Program-made: the position numbers and the translations under genes
In this document: positions 1,371 through 62,785 of the stretch, one piece after another
Numbering within the stretch: the first letter of the stretch is position 1
Layout of the letters: every line of letters begins with the position of its first letter
The notes under the pieces: generated by a model
The model's input: only the letters and a program-made list of their open reading frames with translations
Told to the model about the DNA's origin: nothing
Databases searched by the model: none
Source of the DNA: Patescibacteria group bacterium
Lineage (GTDB): Bacteria; Patescibacteriota; Microgenomatia; UBA10105; UBA927
Direction of reading: 5' to 3'
Length of the DNA: 64,000 nucleotides
NCBI GenBank assembly: GCA_023379025.1
Contig: JAMCTH010000010.1
Span: 9,088 to 73,087, forward strand

Positions 1371-1452
1371 AGTATCCTCCGGACGATAACCAACGGTCGT
1401 CTCTCCGTCAGCCGCGTTCCCGGCTTAAGAGAGACGGCTCAAAACCCCAAAG

Positions 1453-1540
1453 TGGCGCGGGAGAGAATCGAACTCTCACTCCGCCGGCTGGCGGAACGGG
1501 TTTTTGAGACCCGCCTGTCTCCCAATTCCAGCACCGCGCC
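1453..1540 (-). tRNA. tRNA-Leu (anticodon CAA), long variable arm, CCA not encoded
   Basis: Minus-strand sequence GGCGCGG-UG-...-CGGGU-CUCAAAA-ACCCG-(variable-arm hairpin CCGCC-AGCC-GGCGG)-GAGAG-UUCGAUU-CUCUC-CCGCGCC-A folds as a class II tRNA with a 7-bp acceptor stem, CAA anticodon in a 7-nt loop, and T-loop TTCGATT. Coordinates hand-counted, +/-2 nt. Confidence 0.8.
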
Positions 1541-20057: not shown

Positions 20058-21029
20058 TCAAAGTTCTGATGATAACTCCGAAAGAAGCGCCAATGCTTCG
20101 GCGGGTGTCGTGGTCGCCATAAAGCGGACCCTCCAGTCCGAAGCGCCATGAAAGCCGTGTATGTAGAGCTTGTAAAACTTCTTGAGAATTGCATAACTCT
20201 TCCGGCTTCCCCATGTTTCCGCAAAAAGCGTAACATGCCGTTCCATGATGCGTATAAGCTCCCGCGGGGTTCCCTGATGGGGCGCCGGAGAACGGTCAAA
20301 CGCCCAGAGATTTTGAAAAATTCCCCGTCCGATCATGACACCGTCAACTTGATACCTCCCATACATCTCAAGTGCGCGACGCGCATCGCGGATATCGCCG
20401 TTGCCGATGATATTCGTCCGCACGCCCATCCGGTCACGGATCCGTACTGCGCGACCGATATCATCCCAATGGGCCGGAACATTCGACATCTCCCGGGCCG
20501 TCCTGCCATGAACGGTAAGTGCGTCGATCTCCTGTCCCAGAAGAAACGGGATCCACGTATCCGTTACCCGCGAACGGGTGCCGAGTCTGGTTTTGACGCT
20601 GACGGGGAGGGTCGTACCCGCGTCCCGAATGCCATTTTTCACGGCCCGGATCACGGAAGCCGCCGTTTCGGGTGTGTCGATAAGCGAAGCGCCGCAGCCG
20701 TTTTTCATCACCGTTTTGTCCGGACAACCCATATTGATGTCTATCCCGGCAAATCCCCGGCCCGCGACAAGCTTCGCGGCTTCATACATCACATCCGGAT
20801 TGTTTCCCCAGATTTGGGCAATGATCGGCGCTTCCGGAGGCGAAAAGAGAAGATTTTCCGAGACCGCATCACTGCCGCGGGACAGGAGTCCGTCAGCCGA
20901 GGTAAATTCCGTAAAAAACAGGTCAGGCTTGGCAGTACTCACGATGATCTGCCGGAATACGGTATCGGATACGCCCTCAAGCGGCGCCATGACGAGAAAC
21001 GGTTTGGGAAGCGCTTGCCAGATATTCAC
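20058..21029 (-). CDS. tRNA-dihydrouridine synthase
   Basis: 323 aa; MAPLEGVSD, FMN-binding TIM-barrel pattern (IDINMGCP, VKTRLG, HGRT). Confidence 0.88.
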   Translation of the reverse strand: MNIWQALPKPFLVMAPLEGVSDTVFRQIIVSTAKPDLFFTEFTSADGLLSRGSDAVSENLLFSPPEAPIIAQIWGNNPDVMYEAAKLVAGRGFAGIDINMGCPDKTVMKNGCGASLIDTPETAASVIRAVKNGIRDAGTTLPVSVKTRLGTRSRVTDTWIPFLLGQEIDALTVHGRTAREMSNVPAHWDDIGRAVRIRDRMGVRTNIIGNGDIRDARRALEMYGRYQVDGVMIGRGIFQNLWAFDRSPAPHQGTPRELIRIMERHVTLFAETWGSRKSYAILKKFYKLYIHGFHGASDWRVRFMATTTPAEALALLSELSSEL

Positions 21030-21111: not shown

Positions 21112-21846
21112 TTACTCGACTGGGGGGGCGCCGAATATGGTCACAACCGTGCCGGGATCGGATGGAGACGCGTACGTGGTCGGACCGGTCGATACCGGGT
21201 CTGCCCAGGCAAAGAGGAGCGCCGCGTCTTCGGGACGCATATTCACGCACCCATGGCTCATCGGATGGCCGAAATTATCGTGCCAGTAGGCGCCATGGAT
21301 ACTGTATCCCGCCGAACGCGGCACATCGGTACTGGCAAAAAACATGGTGTAGGGCACGTTATACAGGTTGTAGTACGTCCCGTCCGCGGGATTACCCCCT
21401 TCCATATGAGTATACCGGAGCTTAATCCAGATCCGGAAATCTCCGGTCGGGGTCGGATGCCATTTCCCGGTCGCGACCGGAAAGGTAAAAACAAGTTTCT
21501 GCCCTTCAAACGCCGTCAGCTTCTGGGTAGAAAGGTCAACATAGATGTGTTTTGGCTCCGTCGTCTCCCCGAGGACGCGTCCCGTTCCGGCGGGCAACCG
21601 GGCAAGGACGGACGGGTATGGGACAATTCTTCCCATGAACGTATTAGTCTTCCCTTCAACAAACGACCCGGACAGGTCGCCGACGCAGCTAATGGAATTG
21701 GCGCAAACAGAAGTTGCTATATTGTGCCTGATAACAAGGAGAAGTGCTATAGACAGCACCAGTGCCGTACCCAGAAGCAGTCCCCTGAAAAAACCGTGAG
21801 ATGAGGCAGACCGCCTCCGAATAGGTTTCATCCGTTTTCGTCTCAT
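21112..21846 (-). CDS. L,D-transpeptidase (YkuD domain) with N-terminal TM anchor
   Basis: 244 aa; catalytic HGCVNM motif near the C-terminus, preceded by SIHG. Confidence 0.85.
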   Translation of the reverse strand: MRRKRMKPIRRRSASSHGFFRGLLLGTALVLSIALLLVIRHNIATSVCANSISCVGDLSGSFVEGKTNTFMGRIVPYPSVLARLPAGTGRVLGETTEPKHIYVDLSTQKLTAFEGQKLVFTFPVATGKWHPTPTGDFRIWIKLRYTHMEGGNPADGTYYNLYNVPYTMFFASTDVPRSAGYSIHGAYWHDNFGHPMSHGCVNMRPEDAALLFAWADPVSTGPTTYASPSDPGTVVTIFGAPPVE

Positions 21847-21963
21847 ACATCCATAGTACGCAAGTTCCGGCGAAATGTGAAGCAGGCGTTCTTGTCTTGA
21901 CTTATACCCTATAGTATGTTATACTGCACCCTTCGTTTTCTCTTCAGGGCCAAACGTATACCT

Positions 21964-22593
21964 ATGCAACCGACAATCCTGACCGCCGTATTTGTCCTCC
22001 TTTTCGGCCCGGGCCGGCCCGTTACCGTGCCCACACCCAAGCCGCTTGCGTACCATGCCTTTTCTCTCGACGACCGCTACGGCAATACCTTCGTCAATAC
22101 GGTATTTAAGGATAACATTCTTCTGGCCGTTCGCTATACGACCGGAGGAGCAGTTAATCCGAATACCCTTAACTGGACAGCCATTCAAAAGCCGTTTACG
22201 GCAAGCCTGACGCTCCGGCCCGGGGAAACGTTTGCATTCCATGACAACGTCCTGCCCGAGTACCGGGGAAAAATAGCCAAAACCCCGGGCGTTCACTTTA
22301 CCTCTGCCGAAGGATTCAAGTCCGACGGCTATCTTGTGGGAGACGGTGTCTGTCACCTGGCTTCCCTTCTCTACTGGGTAGCACGGGACGCGGGACTTGC
22401 CGCTTATGCTCCGGTGCGCCACAACTTCGCGCCTATTGCGGATGTTCCGAAAGAGTACGGGGTCTCGATTTATGCCCTCGGTGACTCACGGGGAAGTGAA
22501 CTGCAGAATCTCTACATTACCAATACCAAACCCGAACCGGTTGTTTTCCGTTTCTCCTTCGACGGCACCAAACTCGGCATCACGGCTATCTAA
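21964..22593 (+). CDS. VanW-like protein
   Basis: Track ORF 21916-22593; ATG 21964 (MQPTILTAVFVLLF) gives a signal/TM then GDGVCHLASLLYW resembling the VanW GGGVCQ motif. Confidence 0.6.
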   Translation: MQPTILTAVFVLLFGPGRPVTVPTPKPLAYHAFSLDDRYGNTFVNTVFKDNILLAVRYTTGGAVNPNTLNWTAIQKPFTASLTLRPGETFAFHDNVLPEYRGKIAKTPGVHFTSAEGFKSDGYLVGDGVCHLASLLYWVARDAGLAAYAPVRHNFAPIADVPKEYGVSIYALGDSRGSELQNLYITNTKPEPVVFRFSFDGTKLGITAI

Positions 22594-27984: not shown

Positions 27985-29523
27985 TTACGTTTCGCTGTAT
28001 CCCGGGAAAAAGTCCGTTTTCACCTGAAGTTTAGGGACTCCCATGGAAGAAAGGGTGTGTTCAAAATTTTCTACCATAAGCTGCGGCCCCGAAAGGTAAT
28101 AGGTCCGCCGCTGCCAGTCAGGAACCGCGCGTTTTACCATCTCAGGAGTTACCCGGCCCCGCTCCCCCTTCCAGTCGGCCGGTATTGACGCCGTATCCGT
28201 CAGGGTATAGACGGTCCTGATTCCGACGGAACTGCCGGCATCAAAGATATCCCTGTAGGCGATGTCCGTATGTTTACGGTTTGCATAGAGAAGGACGATA
28301 TCGCGGCGTTCCCTCCTGTCCACCAGATATTTGATCATGCTCCGGAACGGCACCACACCAATCCCGCCCGCAACAAAGACAAGCGGTATTGAGGGATCCT
28401 TAGGCAGCACGAAGTCTCCGGCAACCTGCGCCGCGATGATATGTGCTCCCGGCAATAATCCGGCGAGCGTCCGCTTGTAGGTACTGGGAGGCGTATAAAA
28501 CTTCACGCCGATTGCAAGGTCTCCCTCCGTCGGCGAGGAAGCGAGGCTGAAATAACGCCGGACACCACGGCTGTCGGGTCTCCAGTGCGGCAGTGTCCAT
28601 TCCATATACTGTCCCGGCTCATACCGGAATCCCGGGGGCTTGGCGAAACTCATGGCAAGCGTATCCGGAGTCAGGAGTTTCCTTACGGCGACGGCAAGAT
28701 CCAGACGATAATTGGGACTCATAACATAGGAGAGGATATTGCCGACCGAAAGCGCAAGTTCCGGCGTGAGCGCTATGCCTATTCTCAGTACCGGGGTTGC
28801 GGCAAGGAGGGCAACGACGCCGGCATAGATATCCCGGTGGCGCGCCGTGGTCGGCGACGTCAGGGGCTCCGTCAGCATGACCAACCCGAGAAAGAGAAAT
28901 GCGGACCGGAGGATTGTCGTCTGCCACGTTGTGAAAACGGTGAGGAGCGATCCCGTACGCAGAAGGCTCGCAAGAGCAACGGCGATAAGGTACACCAGCG
29001 CATAGACGGCGACCATCCGCTCCCGTTCGATTTTTCGGACCAGAAGATAGCCGCCGAGAAGGACAAATGGAGCAAGAAATGGCGTCCCCACCCACCATGT
29101 GGCGGCTTTGCCGGTAAGGAGAGCAAGAGCCGCTACCGATGCACCCGCCGGATTAAAAATATGATGCTTGTCTATCGTCGGCAGGTACTTGACCGCCATG
29201 GCAAAAATGCATGAAGAGACGAGAAAGCCGGCATGCTCCGGATACCCGAACGGAACGATCAGAGAAAGGATAAGTGCCGTAATAAAAACGGATTCGGTAT
29301 TGGTCACCGCTCCGAAGAGGCGCGCAAACACCATATTTACCGGTACCGATACGATGACGGCAAGGAGCGCTCCGATGGCGATATCGAGAGGATTATACGG
29401 CAGAAAACCCGCGGCACTCCCCCCGATGGCAATAGCGAGTAAACCAATGAGGTAATAGAGCGTCAACCGGTACATCGTAATCCGGTTGAGATAGCGATCA
29501 AGAAATTCCATCATATACATCAT
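27985..29523 (-). CDS. membrane oxidoreductase: polytopic N-domain (RnfD/NqrB-like?) fused to FNR-type FAD/NAD(P)H module
   Basis: 512 aa. Roughly 300 aa with 8-10 TM helices (HIFNPAG motif), then RRYFSLAS (RxYS FAD motif), GGIGVVPF (NAD(P)H Gly-rich motif), and C-terminal YLSGP. 4-nt overlap with ApbE. Confidence 0.8.
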   Translation of the reverse strand: MMYMMEFLDRYLNRITMYRLTLYYLIGLLAIAIGGSAAGFLPYNPLDIAIGALLAVIVSVPVNMVFARLFGAVTNTESVFITALILSLIVPFGYPEHAGFLVSSCIFAMAVKYLPTIDKHHIFNPAGASVAALALLTGKAATWWVGTPFLAPFVLLGGYLLVRKIERERMVAVYALVYLIAVALASLLRTGSLLTVFTTWQTTILRSAFLFLGLVMLTEPLTSPTTARHRDIYAGVVALLAATPVLRIGIALTPELALSVGNILSYVMSPNYRLDLAVAVRKLLTPDTLAMSFAKPPGFRYEPGQYMEWTLPHWRPDSRGVRRYFSLASSPTEGDLAIGVKFYTPPSTYKRTLAGLLPGAHIIAAQVAGDFVLPKDPSIPLVFVAGGIGVVPFRSMIKYLVDRRERRDIVLLYANRKHTDIAYRDIFDAGSSVGIRTVYTLTDTASIPADWKGERGRVTPEMVKRAVPDWQRRTYYLSGPQLMVENFEHTLSSMGVPKLQVKTDFFPGYSET

Positions 29524-30266
29524 TCTGCCATGACATACCTGTCAAATCCGCTGGTCCAGGAAGCCTGCTTGTCGTGCCCGACCATATAGGCCTCGCAGCC
29601 GGAAACGCGCTCAATAAATGCCAGTCCTCCTTTCCCCATGGCAAAAGCCGCGGTTGCAAACCGGTCTGCTTCGTAGATATCCGATCCGATCACGGTAATG
29701 CTCATAATATCCGCCGCGGTTTGTCCGGTTTTGGGATTATAAATGTGCCCCTTCCTGATATACTGACCGGACGTCGCGACCCCTTCTCCGTTGCCGAGAA
29801 CCAGAACTTTTATCAGTTCTTTCCGGTTAAACGGATTTTCTATACCGATGCGCCAAGGCTCATCCGTGCAGTTTCTTCCGGACACCTGGCTGTCACCGGC
29901 GATCGTCACGGCAAAATTCAGGAGGTACCGCCCCCGGAGAAGCCGTGCCGCTTCAAGGATAGCCCATCCTTTCACGATACCGGAAGGGTCGATGATTCCG
30001 TCGTGGCGGATATCGAAATACCCATGGGTTACGCGTTTGGTTTCCTCCGACAGATCCAGAATCTTTTTCATGGCATCCGACGCATTTCTGAGCGAACGTT
30101 TACCCCGGTTGATTTCGGAAATTTCGCTTTCCTTTTTATAGGTGCTGAACCGAAGGTCGATATCATCAAGTAGACCAAATACCGCTCCCGCATCATGAGC
30201 AGTCGCCCACGGATCGACGAGTTCAACGCTCACCGGCATACCCATGATGTCTCTTCGGTATTTCAT
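29520..30266 (-). CDS. ApbE-family FAD:protein FMN transferase (short form, no signal peptide)
   Basis: 248 aa. N-terminus IMGMPVSVEL (the conserved MGT start of the ApbE fold) and the ATSGQYIR region. No lipobox or signal peptide upstream. Confidence 0.8.
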   Translation of the reverse strand: MKYRRDIMGMPVSVELVDPWATAHDAGAVFGLLDDIDLRFSTYKKESEISEINRGKRSLRNASDAMKKILDLSEETKRVTHGYFDIRHDGIIDPSGIVKGWAILEAARLLRGRYLLNFAVTIAGDSQVSGRNCTDEPWRIGIENPFNRKELIKVLVLGNGEGVATSGQYIRKGHIYNPKTGQTAADIMSITVIGSDIYEADRFATAAFAMGKGGLAFIERVSGCEAYMVGHDKQASWTSGFDRYVMAE

Positions 30267-30270
30267 AAGA

Positions 30271-30795
30271 TCAGACGGCCTGAGACAGGGCGCTTCCGAG
30301 TGACTCCCGGAATGCGGCGCTCGAATCCGAGGCTCCGGAGACGATGTCCACCTGCGCGCTCTGCGCCTGTATTGCTTCCGAACGGAGGATGGGCAAAGCC
30401 TGGCTGTTTATGTAAAGCGAGGTCTGGTTATCGTTCGGGTACTGAAGAAACTGCACGTCAGTGATACTGCCGTTCCGGATGACCGCCCGAACCTGGATAT
30501 TACCATAGTAAGCATCGGCCACACTTCCGGTATACGTGCCGTCTTTGTATTTTCCCCGCGGCTGGGACGGGGCCGGGGTTGCCGCCGGCGGGGGTGTCGG
30601 GGCGGGTGTGAGTGTCGCAGGCATATCCGGAAATCCCGCGGGGGGTAAACCACCCGGTCCGGAAACCGGCGGCAGGGATCCCGCTACCTCCCGGCTTCCC
30701 GTTCCCTGCTCTAAACTTTTCACCCAGACCAGAAGTCCGAAGGCACCAAGTACCACGGTGATCTGCAGATATTTTTTCAGTTGATCCATAGGCAC
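30271..30795 (-). CDS. membrane-anchored FMN-binding domain protein (flavinylation substrate)
   Basis: 174 aa. TM anchor (LQITVVLGAFGLLVWV), Pro-rich linker, FMN_bind-like domain with DIVSGASDSS at the position of the [D]xxSGA[T/S] flavinylation motif. 4-nt gap to ApbE. Confidence 0.75.
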   Translation of the reverse strand: MPMDQLKKYLQITVVLGAFGLLVWVKSLEQGTGSREVAGSLPPVSGPGGLPPAGFPDMPATLTPAPTPPPAATPAPSQPRGKYKDGTYTGSVADAYYGNIQVRAVIRNGSITDVQFLQYPNDNQTSLYINSQALPILRSEAIQAQSAQVDIVSGASDSSAAFRESLGSALSQAV

Positions 30796-30820
30796 AGTCT
30801 ACGGAAGCCGGATGAAGAGA

Positions 30821-31852
30821 TCATGAATTACGGCTCTTCGGCAATCTGATTGTGATCGTTGTTCCTTTCGCCGGAGCGCTTTGTACGGCTATATCCCCGC
30901 CGTGCTCCCGGACAATGGCCTGGGCTATGGGCAATCCGAGACCGGATCCTCCGTCGGCATTTTTCGTTCTGCTTTTTTCTCCCCGGTAAAACCGGTTAAA
31001 GATAAACGGAAGCTGGTCACCGGGAATACCCGTTCCGGTATCCGCAATGGTCACGGTCACGTGTCCGTCCCGGCTTACGGCATCAACTGTGACCGAACCC
31101 CCGTTGTCGGTGTAGTCAATCGCGTTTTTTATGACATTGGTAAACGCGGACAAAAGCTCTTCCCGGTTGCCGTTTACCGACAGTTTGCCGGATCCGGCTG
31201 ATCCGCGAAGCGCCACGTGCCGTTTTTTTGCGTACGGCAGAAGCCTCGCCGTAGCGTCATGAAGTACTAACGAAACGTCCAGGCGTTTCGTAACGGGAGG
31301 AGCCTCCCGGTTGTCAAGACGCGACAGAAGAAGAAGCTCGTTGACGAGTCCGGCCATACGGTTTACTTCTTCGAGGTTGCTCACCAGGTTTTGCCGGTGC
31401 ATGGGCTCGGATTCTTTTTTCCCCGCAAGCTCCACTTCTATGTTGGTTTTGAGGACCGCAAGCGGTGTCCGAAGCTCATGGGAAGCGTCGCTTAAAAACT
31501 GTTTCTGTTGCTCGAGCGTTTCCCGTATCGGGGTAAGGGTCTTGCCGGCAAGCACAAACCCGAGACCGCCGGCCAGGATGAGGATGCCGGCATCGAGCAC
31601 AAACAATACCGTATGCATCTGGTCCTCCGCCTCCTGGACAAACAGGAATTCCTCCTCGTCGCTCCGGGCAAAGCGGTGTGCCGTGGTTCTGATGTTTCTG
31701 CCGAAAGCAACGATTATCGCCTGGCTGAAAATAAAGAGAATAACCGCGATGATCGCGATATAGATGACGGTCAGTCTGAAGCGGGCCTTTTCGAAAAGGT
31801 TAGTCCGTATAGCGGTAGCCCATGCCCCGAACGGTTTGGAGATATCCGGCAT
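30821..31852 (-). CDS. sensor histidine kinase
   Basis: 343 aa. Two TM helices, HisKA H-box SHELRTPL, and HATPase N/G boxes (NAIDYT, DTGTGIP, GGSGLGL). Confidence 0.9.
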   Translation of the reverse strand: MPDISKPFGAWATAIRTNLFEKARFRLTVIYIAIIAVILFIFSQAIIVAFGRNIRTTAHRFARSDEEEFLFVQEAEDQMHTVLFVLDAGILILAGGLGFVLAGKTLTPIRETLEQQKQFLSDASHELRTPLAVLKTNIEVELAGKKESEPMHRQNLVSNLEEVNRMAGLVNELLLLSRLDNREAPPVTKRLDVSLVLHDATARLLPYAKKRHVALRGSAGSGKLSVNGNREELLSAFTNVIKNAIDYTDNGGSVTVDAVSRDGHVTVTIADTGTGIPGDQLPFIFNRFYRGEKSRTKNADGGSGLGLPIAQAIVREHGGDIAVQSAPAKGTTITIRLPKSRNS

Positions 31853-32465
31853 ATGCTCCTTTCAGTTTCTTCCTCAAATTTTTGACATGCGCGTCGACGG
31901 TGTTGCTGAAGGTATCCGCAGCCATATCCCATACATGGTCCAGGATCTGCTCCCGGGTCAGGACGGTGTTTTTATTGCGGAGGAAATACTCGAGAAGCTG
32001 GAACTCCCGGCGCGTCAGGCTTACTTCCGATCTGCCGATCTGCACGGTCTGGGCAGCCGTATCAAGCGTCAGTTCATGACTTTTCAGGACTGCCGGGAGC
32101 ACTGTCTTGGGGCGTCGGAGGAGCGCACGTACCCGGGCAAGGAGTTCCGTAAAGGCAAACGGTTTGATGAGATAGTCATCAGCACCGCTATCGAGCCCCA
32201 CAACCTTATCCTCCAGTGCATCCTTGGCAGTCAGAAATAGAATAGGTACATGCACGCCGGCATGACGGAGGTCCGTACAAACCGTCAGGCCGTCTTTTTT
32301 GGGAAGGAGGATATCGAGTATGACCAGGTCATAATCCTGATTCTTTGCAAACAGCTCTCCTTCTTCGCCGTCAAATGCACTGTCGACGGCATAGCCTTTC
32401 TGTTCCAGCCCTTTTTTGATAGAGAAGTTGAGTTTCGCTTCATCCTCAACGAGAAGCAGTCTCAT
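31800..32465 (-). CDS. OmpR-family response regulator
   Basis: 221 aa. Receiver domain (LLVEDE, D at about 52 DLVILDILLP, K at about 102) and a winged-helix trans_reg_C domain. Confidence 0.9.
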   Translation of the reverse strand: MRLLLVEDEAKLNFSIKKGLEQKGYAVDSAFDGEEGELFAKNQDYDLVILDILLPKKDGLTVCTDLRHAGVHVPILFLTAKDALEDKVVGLDSGADDYLIKPFAFTELLARVRALLRRPKTVLPAVLKSHELTLDTAAQTVQIGRSEVSLTRREFQLLEYFLRNKNTVLTREQILDHVWDMAADTFSNTVDAHVKNLRKKLKGAYAGYLQTVRGMGYRYTD

Positions 32466-32511
32466 GAGGGTATTGTACTCCGCTCTGATGAAGGTTTCAT
32501 GAACTATTACA

Positions 32512-33087
32512 TTACTTCAGGTATCGGCCAAAAAACCGGATGCTTCTCTCCATAGCCAGGGAAAATCCCTGGGAAATATTATGGTCCGATCCCGGATATT
32601 CATAAAACTCCACGGTTTTGCCTGCCGCTTTCAGCCGGTCCCGGAGGCCCTCGGAAAAGGCGACCGGCACCTCCTCGTCCGCGCCTCCGGCATCAAGCTG
32701 GACAGGCGCCGTGATGTCGGCAACATACGCCGTCGGGTCGATGCTGTTCCAAAAGGCAGGGTTTGCCGACCTGGTTTTCCTTCCGAATTGCCGTGTCCCC
32801 GGTAGTCGGGCTTAAACACGATGTATCCGGAACGGGCAAATGCGGCAACGTAGGCAACATACCGCTCGGTCGTCCTGTATTCCTCGGGCGGAATATATCC
32901 GTGATTGAAGACGATGACCGGCCATCCGCGCGGAGGCTTCTCAGCACGCATGGAGGCAACGGAAAGCGAACCCGGCGCGGAAGTCGACGGAGGTGTCGGT
33001 TTCCCTCCAGCGATCCTGTTTGAGAACAACCCAACCGGTACAGCCGGCAATACTGACGAGCAAGATGAGGAAGGCCCATTTTTTCAT
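32512..33087 (-). pseudogene. decayed lipoprotein alpha/beta-hydrolase (dienelactone-hydrolase/S9-like), two or more frameshifts plus internal deletion
   Basis: Three minus-strand frames carry successive pieces. Frame a: lipoprotein signal MKKWAFLILLVSIAGC. Frame b: PVIVFNHGY...YIVFKPDYRGHGNSEGKP. Frame c: ANPAFWNSIDPTAYVADITAPVQLDAGGADEEVPV...FYEYPGSDHNISQGFSLAMERSIRFFGRYLK-stop. The GxSxG nucleophile-elbow segment between b and c is missing. Confidence 0.7.
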
Positions 33088-62437: not shown

Positions 62438-62785
62438 CTACGGGCACACATGATTGTGTACCCCGGAAAGGAGGCGGAACAAAGATCGGCAATTGCAGTT
62501 AAAAGCGTGTGGCCCCCTCTTTTTACGTAAAAAAGGGGGGGATACGAGGCAGGGGATCCCGAGCTCCAGCGAGGGAAATCGGACTTAGCAGAGAGAAAAC
62601 CGTAGGTTGTCTCTCCTAAAGCATCTGCGGAAACCCCTTGGCGGCACTTCCCGCCAGAAGAAAAACCGGAAAACGCTTTCGGTAACGGGAGCACTAAATG
62701 GCTTTTCACGAAGTCCGTATCTTCTTTATCATCACCATTCTGTCTTCTTTTCCCAATAATTGTTCGGGCATACTGGAGGTACTAT

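Follow-up and report, generated by a model that had tools for sequence, protein, structure and literature searches.

The closest described relatives of the locus analysed here are the NQR/RNF-like systems, a class described from genomes (Méheust 2021, eLife, PMC8238504; Huang 2024, mSystems, PMC11334425) and modelled in the second of these papers. The class is defined by a PF03116 N-terminal membrane domain fused to an NqrF-like PF00175 NAD-binding domain, and also by a flavinylation-associated gene cluster, with ApbE or FMN_bind encoded within five genes; 127 clusters were reported (PMC8238504). The membrane subunit is described as lacking the flavinylated Thr motif and the NqrC/RnfG-like partner as keeping [S/T]GA[S/T]; in an AlphaFold-multimer model the FMN_bind subunit docks at the membrane subunit's vacant flavin site, on the side away from the FNR module (PMC11334425). 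A one-way transfer of electrons from NAD(P)H to an extracytosolic FMN is proposed in these papers.

The locus and the published class

The window, by which we mean the whole stretch of 64,000 nucleotides that was analysed, comes from a 'Patescibacteria group bacterium' (protein accessions MCL4360591.1 and MCL4360592.1). A check of the open reading frames confirmed the five co-directional minus-strand operon genes that had been read from the sequence alone, each at its expected position (Table 1). Pfam matches upheld the domain assignments of all five proteins, and the motifs quoted for them were all located in the translations, with HIFNPAG (residues 121-127), RRYFSLAS (322-329), GGIGVVPF (386-393) and YLSGP (476-480) in the fusion protein and SGAS in the FMN_bind protein. 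Packing by 4-nt overlaps or gaps held for the oxidoreductase and ApbE genes, which overlap by 4 nt (ATGA; an 8-nt gap if the NCBI start, giving a 508-aa form, is taken), and for the ApbE and FMN_bind genes, separated by 4 nt, but not for the remaining junctions: 25 nt separate the FMN_bind and histidine kinase (HK) genes, and the HK start codon (ATG, 31852) lies 53 nt within the response regulator (RR) gene, preceded by AAAGGAG. The same HK/RR overlap was seen in two relative loci (L010 and L024).

Table 1. Positions of the operon genes and related features in the window
Feature	Position	Strand	Basis
OmpR-type response regulator (RR), 221 aa	31800..32465	-	Pfam
Small sensor histidine kinase (HK), 343 aa	30821..31852	-	Pfam, hydropathy
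NqrC/RnfG-like FMN_bind protein, 174 aa	30271..30795	-	Pfam, homologue architecture
Predicted flavinylation motif SGAS, residues 153-156	30328..30339	-	Motif conservation
Leaderless, trimmed ApbE-type FAD:protein FMN transferase, 248 aa	29520..30266	-	Pfam, AF2, Foldseek
Oxidoreductase (fusion protein), residues 1-512	27985..29523	-	
RnfD/NqrB-like membrane domain of fusion, residues 1-270, ten helices	28714..29523	-	
FNR-type FAD/NAD(P)H module of fusion, residues 271-512	27985..28713	-	
Weak sigma-70-like promoter match	32472..32500	-	9/12 consensus positions

Both domains of the class definition were found in one protein, PF03116 at the N-terminus and PF00175 at the C-terminus, with the ApbE and FMN_bind genes directly upstream of the fusion gene. 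The flavinylation motif was absent from the fusion proteins (0/82 and 0/85) and present in all 72 of 72 FMN_bind partners, which is the distribution described by Huang 2024. We conclude that the locus is a typical member of the published NQR/RNF-like class, and neither a new system nor a new domain fusion; the fusion that the sequence-only reading did not recognise as described is the defining feature of the class (PMC8238504, PMC11334425). The core architecture is identical, including a membrane subunit without a flavinylation site, and the taxonomic range matches, the published class covering the candidate phyla radiation and a modelled Chloroflexota example (PMC11334425). The 80 related loci that we compared are nearly all from Patescibacteria, with a few from Chloroflexota, and in 62 of them the FMN_bind, ApbE and fusion genes formed an intact triad with the gene order kept, so that the arrangement is not a chance one and the check for a conserved gene order was passed. 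The window locus differs in having an OmpR-type two-component system upstream, and our survey of species-level genomes (GTDB species representatives) differs in scale, with ~590 related stretches as against the 127 clusters given in PMC8238504.

We put at about 0.68 the probability that the locus encodes a flavinylation-associated module of the NQR/RNF-like kind for electron transfer across the membrane, preceded in this genome by an OmpR-type two-component system. In the proposed mechanism, NAD(P)H (the donor may be NADH or NADPH) would be oxidised by the cytoplasmic FNR module with reduction of its FAD, and the ten-helix RnfD/NqrB-like domain would then carry electrons outward across the membrane to an FMN presumed to be covalently bound to Ser156 of the NqrC/RnfG-like protein, itself held by one N-terminal helix anchor and a flexible Pro/Thr-rich tether of ~54 residues. 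ApbE would install this FMN from FAD, and the reduced FMN domain would hand its electrons to an extracytosolic acceptor that the module does not itself encode. The order from NAD(P)H through FAD and the membrane domain to a covalently flavinylated FMN_bind protein, already suggested by the sequence-only reading, agrees with the published proposal as well as with the present checks. These checks show the domain identities, the folds, how the fusion protein lies in the membrane, and that both the flavinylation motif and the triad are conserved; flavin occupancy, the direction of flow, the donor, the acceptor and control by the two-component system are inferred.

Gene neighbourhood and the two-component system

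Among the 80 loci no other gene was conserved around the triad, and no gene for a terminal reductase or acceptor was conserved nearby. The RR matched Response_reg and Trans_reg_C in Pfam (93 bits each), and its best NCBIfam matches, both below cut-off, were to RppA (241, cut-off 250) and to the CopR/SilR subfamily (222, cut-off 279). The HK carries HisKA and HATPase_c domains (Pfam) after two transmembrane helices (~32-50 and ~82-100) that flank a loop of ~30 aa, and kinases of ~340 aa with the same architecture adjoin the module in five related loci (L010, L024, L053, L062 and L079) and lie ~2.3 kb away in another (L078). A two-component system was directly adjacent in only 7/80 loci, and an RR was present within 7 kb in 14/80; the system earlier called dedicated is a recurrent but minority neighbour; it may control the module in the window. 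A weak sigma-70-like match ends 7 nt upstream of the RR start codon and is no more than a possible promoter, such sites being no commoner in the region than in shuffled sequence.

A different use of the same chain would be that of an assimilatory metal (ferric) reductase, which would reduce Fe(III) or some other metal outside the cell so that it can be taken up, under the control of a metal-responsive two-component system. The best scores of the RR and HK were with the CopR/CopS-type heavy-metal and RppA/RppB families, but all of the NCBIfam scores fell under the curated cut-offs, and the ~30-residue loop of the kinase has no recognisable metal-binding domain. A VIT1 Fe(II) transporter is reported in six NQR/RNF-like clusters (PMC8238504), an NRAMP-type transporter lay within 6 kb in 4/80 loci (in L031 it lies 136 nt downstream), and P-type ATPases occurred within the same distance in 6/80; however, metal-transporter links at this frequency (4-6/80) are rare, and none lies within the window. 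We consider assimilatory metal reduction unlikely.

The fusion oxidoreductase and other redox systems

The NQR2_RnfD_RnfE (PF03116) match of the fusion protein, over residues 24-242, was ~1 bit over threshold (28.8 bits vs a cut-off of 27.7), and the sequence-profile match of the membrane domain to NqrB was weak (E 0.07); the RnfD/NqrB identity of this domain is suggested mainly by its predicted structure, which showed an RnfD/NqrB fold instead of that of an unrelated transporter family. The NAD_binding_1 match was stronger (53.6 bits, residues 383-486, Pfam), and the cofactor motifs of the FNR module were invariant among the homologues. Counts of Lys and Arg over 85 homologues (12.2 vs 1.9), read by the positive-inside rule, place the N-terminus and the FNR module in the cytoplasm, and not in the periplasm. 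Cys is nowhere invariant in the membrane domain, and the invariant columns of the whole protein likewise lack it; a single His of the domain is invariant. Having no Fe-S or haem ligands, the domain presumably holds a non-covalent flavin, as NqrB holds riboflavin. The stretch of NqrB from 215 to 286, which carries the flavinylated Thr236, was matched by only ~25 residues of the fusion protein.

Canonical Na+-NQR, with its six subunits NqrA-F, covalent FMN on NqrB and 2Fe-2S ferredoxin domain on NqrF, was considered and rejected: the module has two redox polypeptides only, no flavinylation motif in the fusion, no invariant Cys and no other gene conserved around it. The two systems have ApbE maturation in common, and the FMN_bind protein is the counterpart of NqrC; in contrast, the module lacks NqrA, NqrD, NqrE and the 2Fe-2S domain on the FNR module, has lost the covalent FMN site of NqrB and has no quinone context, and its proposed one-way flow through two polypeptides would differ from the semicircular flow of NqrABCDEF. 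The Rnf complex (RnfABCDEG) was also rejected. The partner protein is RnfG-like, but RnfA/E, RnfB and RnfC are absent from the operon and from the Pfam-scanned flanking genes, and none recurs in the 80 loci; NAD(P)H, which enters Rnf through RnfC, would enter here through the fused FNR module, and ferredoxin would not be involved. The likeness to the Firmicute PplA/FmnB system stands as an analogy only. What the two share is the general logic of a surface protein that is flavinylated by an ApbE-type enzyme and receives electrons from cytosolic NADH; as an identity it fails, as the operon has no Ndh2, EetA/B or Dmk genes and its ApbE has no lipobox. In the Firmicute locus (Ndh2 with a C-terminal transmembrane helix, EetA/B, DmkA/B, PplA, FmnA/B) the membrane step uses Ndh2, demethylmenaquinone and EetA/B, the lipoprotein PplA carries two FMN_bind domains and FmnB too is a lipoprotein, whereas the module would use an RnfD-like flavoprotein, has a transmembrane-anchored substrate with one FMN_bind domain and a leaderless ApbE, and has no linked flavin exporter. 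A NOX/ferric-reductase-type oxidoreductase, in which a six-helix bis-haem ferric-reductase domain is joined to an FNR module, did not fit either.

The module, which occurs widely in a phylum without conventional respiratory chains, might be a minimal redox-driven pump: the passage of electrons through the NqrB/RnfD-like domain would be coupled to the translocation of Na+ or H+ and would energise the membrane. In NQR and RNF it is the NqrB/RnfD subunit that has been implicated in moving ions. Three acidic residues of the domain are invariant (E77, E219 within a TEP motif, and E255), and E219 corresponds in the alignment to the Asp in TDP of NqrB. However, the module contains neither NqrD/E nor RnfA/E, the subunits with which NQR and RNF complete their coupled semicircular path, and the authors who defined the class favour simple one-way transfer. 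We think it quite improbable that the module pumps ions.

The FMN_bind protein and its leaderless ApbE

The FMN_bind match cleared its threshold (28.5 bits vs a cut-off of 22, Pfam), and the protein consists of an N-terminal KK and a transmembrane helix (~10-28), then a linker rich in Pro, Thr and Ala (29-82) and then the FMN_bind domain itself (~93 aa), an architecture shared by 72 homologues with P/T/S-rich linkers of 27-96 aa. By hydropathy, KK and the hydrophobic helix could score as a signal or as an anchor; the N-terminal segment contains no Cys. In the FMN_bind proteins an initial MKK precedes a hydrophobic helix, with ~2 Lys/Arg and no acidic residues on the N-side of the helix, charges that favour an N-in, C-out orientation. 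The motif [S/T]GA[S/T] occurred in every homologue (SGAT 44, SGAS 26, TGAS 1, TGAT 1), and Ser156, 18 residues before the C-terminus, is the predicted attachment site of FMN. Ser at this position, first taken as unusual, is found in 27/72 family members and is allowed by the published motif.

The ApbE protein has the fold and signature of its family, and FMN transfer is its predicted activity. It matched PF02424 with 137 bits, and its AF2 model (pLDDT 93.9) gave in Foldseek a TM-score of 0.88 (query-normalised; 0.70 target-normalised) with Listeria FmnB; V. cholerae ApbE (0.85, query-normalised) and T. pallidum Ftp (0.88, query-normalised) scored similarly. Its ATSG and EADRFAT align with the conserved TSG and EADAWDT of E. 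coli ApbE, of which ~50 residues (~108-158) have no counterpart here. The reading frame cannot be extended upstream and begins MKYRRDIMGMP, with the MGM fold start seven residues later. The signal peptide and lipobox, correctly noted as missing, were absent from the cognate ApbE here and in every relative, and this leaderless, trimmed form is family-wide; in the searched text of PMC8238504 and PMC11334425 we found no mention of it as a universal trait.

Characterised ApbEs that act on extracytosolic substrates are all exported (PMC12052999), and because the cognate ApbE is leaderless, the route by which an outward-facing FMN_bind domain is flavinylated is a real puzzle. The cytosolic ApbE of Klebsiella pneumoniae likewise has no signal peptide, but it matures a soluble cytosolic fumarate reductase (cited in PMC12052999), whereas the sole linked substrate of the module is membrane-anchored and extracytosolic-looking. 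FMN might be attached in the cytoplasm and the anchored domain exported afterwards, or ApbE might leave the cell by an unrecognised route; we regard this reading as rather improbable. Very unlikely, in our view, is an inward-facing system, in which the FMN_bind domain, flavinylated by cytosolic ApbE, would work on the cytoplasmic face and relay FNR electrons into the membrane domain and on to a lipid-soluble or externally bound acceptor, like NqrB with quinone: Patescibacteria are not known to make quinones, and both the N-terminal charges of the FMN_bind proteins and their long P/T/S-rich linkers, which are typical of extracytosolic tethers, argue against it. The paradox would vanish, every ApbE of the family being leaderless and cytosolic flavoproteins being known substrates of cytosolic ApbEs (PMC12052999), but the published multimer places the FMN_bind domain opposite the FNR module (PMC11334425).

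For the window locus the main outcome, an NQR/RNF-like module typical of a published class, is deflationary. Known so far from prediction and modelling, the class is small enough for heterologous reconstitution, and its leaderless ApbE poses a sharp question of where and how flavinylation occurs; either of the two routes suggested above, if true, would be an undescribed way of building an extracytosolic flavoprotein without FAD export. The module is far commoner in Patescibacteria than first reported, and with three genes and two redox polypeptides it is among the few membrane redox devices of these bacteria, which lack conventional respiratory chains, and it bears on their redox balance and membrane energisation. 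If FMN is attached by one of those two routes, the three-gene module would serve hundreds of Patescibacteria species that do not respire as a self-contained electron outlet for NAD(P)H, one that may be coupled to ions.

Layout of the operon and its surroundings

All five co-directional minus-strand genes that the sequence-only reading had placed in 27985-32465 were found as ORFs, and every sequence motif that it had cited was located in the window proteins. The genes are tightly packed, and the 4-nt overlaps or gaps that it had described held for two junctions: the fusion gene shares 4 nt (ATGA) with ApbE, and a 4-nt gap separates ApbE from the FMN_bind gene. The other junctions differ; 25 nt separate the FMN_bind and kinase genes, and the kinase start ATG at 31852 sits 53 nt within the regulator gene (31800-31852, minus strand), with its own AAAGGAG ahead. 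The same 53-nt overlap occurs in two distant relatives among the related loci, L010 (4754-4806) and L024 (521-573), where the kinase N-terminal peptide is likewise kept. Promoter and terminator scanning gave sites no more numerous than in shuffled sequence, and no operon boundary was drawn from it; in the vicinity of the operon an Rfam scan detected neither an FMN riboswitch nor any other regulatory RNA. A "Patescibacteria group bacterium" MAG contains the window proteins in identical form, as MCL4360591.1 and MCL4360592.1, which supports the earlier guess of a reduced-genome host.

Downstream, the EamA gene converges on the fusion gene; the two stops are 3 nt apart, with no space for a terminator between them. 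Directly upstream of the response regulator is a degraded alpha/beta-hydrolase gene, the N-terminal part of which (…VIVFNHGY…DYRGHGNSEG) is in one frame and the C-terminal part (…EFYEYPGSDHNISQ…GRYLK, then stop) in another, the middle part expected to hold the nucleophile elbow being absent; judged from these fragments it is probably a pseudogene. The bactofilin-domain protein combines its beta-solenoid of bactofilin type with a hydrophobic segment in the N-terminal part and three TM helices in the C-terminal part; such a membrane-bound form is unusual, and it is not kept beside the module in relatives.

Features of the operon and of the rest of the window
Feature	Coordinates	Strand	Evidence or remark
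Response regulator, OmpR-type	31800-32465	-	Pfam Response_reg + Trans_reg_C
Histidine kinase	30821-31852	-	Pfam HisKA + HATPase_c
FMN_bind protein, 174 aa	30271-30795	-	Pfam FMN_bind, 28.5 bits (cut-off 22)
ApbE, 248 aa	29520-30266	-	Pfam ApbE, 137 bits
Fusion protein, 512 aa	27985-29523	-	Pfam NQR2_RnfD_RnfE (residues 24-242), 28.8 bits (cut-off 27.7); NAD_binding_1 (residues 383-486), 53.6 bits
EamA protein, 143 aa	27550-27981	+	Single domain (half-size DMT)
Alpha/beta-hydrolase gene, degraded	about 32512-33050	-	
Bactofilin-domain protein, 396 aa	26362-27552	-	PF04519, 40 bits
MFS transporter, 561 aa	24602-26287	-	1.7 kb downstream of module
L,D-transpeptidase (YkuD) and VanW-like protein, divergent genes	21112-22593		YkuD, 84.6 bits
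Dihydrouridine synthase	20058-21029		Adjoins the YkuD/VanW-like pair
glmS glucosamine-6-phosphate ribozyme/riboswitch	62493-62716	+	Rfam RF00234, 51.3 bits (gathering score 37), full-length
tRNA-Leu (CAA)	1452-1540	-	Sole tRNA in the 64-kb window

Conservation of the module across relatives

We surveyed one genome per GTDB species; at least 589 of at least 600 matched stretches encoded a relative of the fusion protein, and the 80 best of these at least 589 relatives were used to compare gene context. Nearly all 80 loci came from Patescibacteria (Levybacteria, Saccharimonadales, Paceibacteria, Microgenomates, Gracilibacteria, Peregrinibacteria, WWE3 and Wirthbacteria), with a few from Chloroflexota. 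Of the 80, 62 had the full set of FMN_bind, ApbE and fusion genes in this order; about five of the exceptions were truncated by contig ends. When all neighbouring ORFs of the 80 loci were clustered, neither a further conserved gene around the triad nor a conserved acceptor or terminal reductase was found. The other neighbours were variable; within 7 kb they comprised an OmpR-type regulator and ABC ATPases, including MacB-like proteins (14/80 loci each), a kinase built like that of the window, with two TM helices and ~340 aa (11/80), an ECF-type sigma factor (10/80), G6PD and a P-type ATPase (6/80 each), and NRAMP and an MFS transporter resembling that of the window (4/80 each).

The two-component system, earlier regarded as dedicated to the operon, does recur beside the module, and the gene order of L010 is exactly that of the window, but it is found no more than 300 nt from the module, on either side, in 7 of 80 loci. 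By a rough estimate this adjacency is well above random for genomes with few such systems, and we conclude that the link is recurrent, not defining. MFS orthologues directly adjoin the FMN_bind gene in L035 (4139-5656) and L041 (3916-5697; 419 bits), and in L013 and L062 they are no more than about 4 kb away; a functional link is possible but weak. G6PD, an NADPH producer, is encoded 1.3-5 kb from the fusion gene in L017, L021, L060, L069, L016 and L064, which hints faintly at NADPH as a possible donor. Duplications also occur: L039 (6986-10049) has two tandem fusion-protein paralogues with a divergent 289-aa ApbE, and L003 (5233-6251) and L079 (5180-6995) have two FMN_bind genes apiece.

The fusion protein and its class

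A database search returned thousands of relatives of the fusion protein; most of the best 120, at 48-57% identity over the full length, were from Patescibacteria, and nearly all had the same two-Pfam-domain make-up. The membrane domain alone, compared with 1.84 billion representatives, matched 1029 clusters at E ≤ 1e-3, of which 157 reached E ≤ 1e-30, and because most listed matches were ~500 aa it is as a rule joined to the FNR module. Its RnfD/NqrB identity is marginal on sequence alone, where NQR2_RnfD_RnfE exceeds the Pfam threshold by 1 bit and NqrB is matched among PDB profiles at an E of 0.07; the assignment is settled mainly by predicted structure. Over an 85-sequence alignment the loops carry 12.2 K+R on the FNR-bearing side versus 1.9 on the opposite side, indicating a cytoplasmic location for both the N-terminus and the FNR module. 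Invariant columns include RRYFS, GGxGxxPF, SGP and the C-terminal FFPGY in the FNR module, and TNxES, KY…H.FNP, WW, GG, TEP and PE..L..GN in the membrane domain. As the alignment has no invariant Cys and just one invariant His in the membrane domain, this domain is unlikely to hold Fe-S or bis-His haem centres; the natural inference from these columns would be a flavin-only transmembrane route.

No [S/T]GA[S/T] occurs in the fusion proteins (0/82 from the loci, 0/85 from the alignment), and only ~25 residues of the window protein correspond to NqrB 215-286, the stretch that bears the flavinylated Thr of NqrB. The "PAGAS" of the window protein was considered as a degenerate flavinylation site and rejected, since it does not match [S/T]GA[S/T] and reads AAVS or AAIS in most homologues. 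In their account of a modelled Ktedonobacter racemifer pair, Huang et al. (2024; PMC11334425) point out a lack of conservation of the NqrB/RnfD flavinylation Thr, and propose that the flavin site left vacant in the membrane subunit is sampled by the covalent FMN of the partner.

These class features are reproduced at the window locus, which is therefore a member of the NQR/RNF-like system. Because the remaining subunits of NQR and of RNF, and the other components of the Firmicute EET system, are absent from the window module, the locus falls outside all three. The earlier view of the fusion as an undescribed system was wrong; the class was defined bioinformatically by Méheust et al. (2021; PMC8238504) and Huang et al. 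(2024), and the window locus is a further member of it. A literature search found no other paper naming the class.

The predicted flavinylated partner, ApbE and the proposed electron route

The 72 FMN_bind proteins encoded beside the fusion gene share a single design: an N-terminal hydrophobic helix, in most preceded by MKK; a P/T/S-rich linker of low complexity, 27-96 residues long (median 53); and an FMN_bind domain of ~93 residues with an invariant [S/T]GA[S/T] 17-20 residues before the C-terminus. The window Ser156, earlier remarked on as standing in place of the usual Thr, is ordinary, since the predicted flavinylated position is Ser in 27 partners (Thr in 45). An FMN_bind–ApbE fusion through readthrough was rejected, the genes being in different frames in the window and separate in relatives.

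That ApbE lacks a signal peptide, as first noticed in the window, holds there and throughout the relatives compared. With the ORF closed 4 nt upstream, and with the first strand of the model (pLDDT 93.9) already including residue 2, no leader is possible. The model matches the folds of Listeria FmnB, V. cholerae ApbE and T. pallidum Ftp, with a TM-score of 0.88 query-normalised and about 0.70 target-normalised; the lower value agrees with the loss of ~50 residues, 108-158 of E. coli ApbE, which lack a counterpart in the window protein. The window ATSG and EADRFAT align with conserved segments of solved enzymes. From the 65 ApbE proteins encoded beside the fusion, which begin M-K-x-T-x-x-I-M-G-M-P or a close variant, the best 120 database homologues (238-263 aa) and the divergent, longer and also leaderless ApbEs of L039 and L061, the leaderless form is universal in the module family. 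Characterised ApbEs with extracytosolic substrates are exported lipoproteins, and cytosolic ApbEs are known for cytosolic reductases only (PMC12052999). The leaderless ApbE is the main unexplained fact of the module: flavinylation may precede export, ApbE may follow an unconventional export route, or the FMN_bind domain may actually be cytoplasmic.

The electron chain sketched from sequence essentially matches the published proposal. NAD(P)H would reduce the FAD of the cytoplasmic FNR module; electrons would then pass to a non-covalent flavin in the RnfD-like domain, by analogy with NqrB and RnfD, and next to FMN on the predicted Ser156 site of the tethered partner, whose FMN domain would reduce an external acceptor. 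Given the long flexible linker, the reduced FMN domain may swing off the membrane. The module could alternatively be a ferric or metal reductase, an ion pump or an inward-facing relay, readings for which support is thin. The interest of this NQR/RNF-like locus lies in the ApbE localisation puzzle, in a class that has been predicted, with no experimental study of it found in the literature, and in a spread through Patescibacteria that is much wider than first reported.
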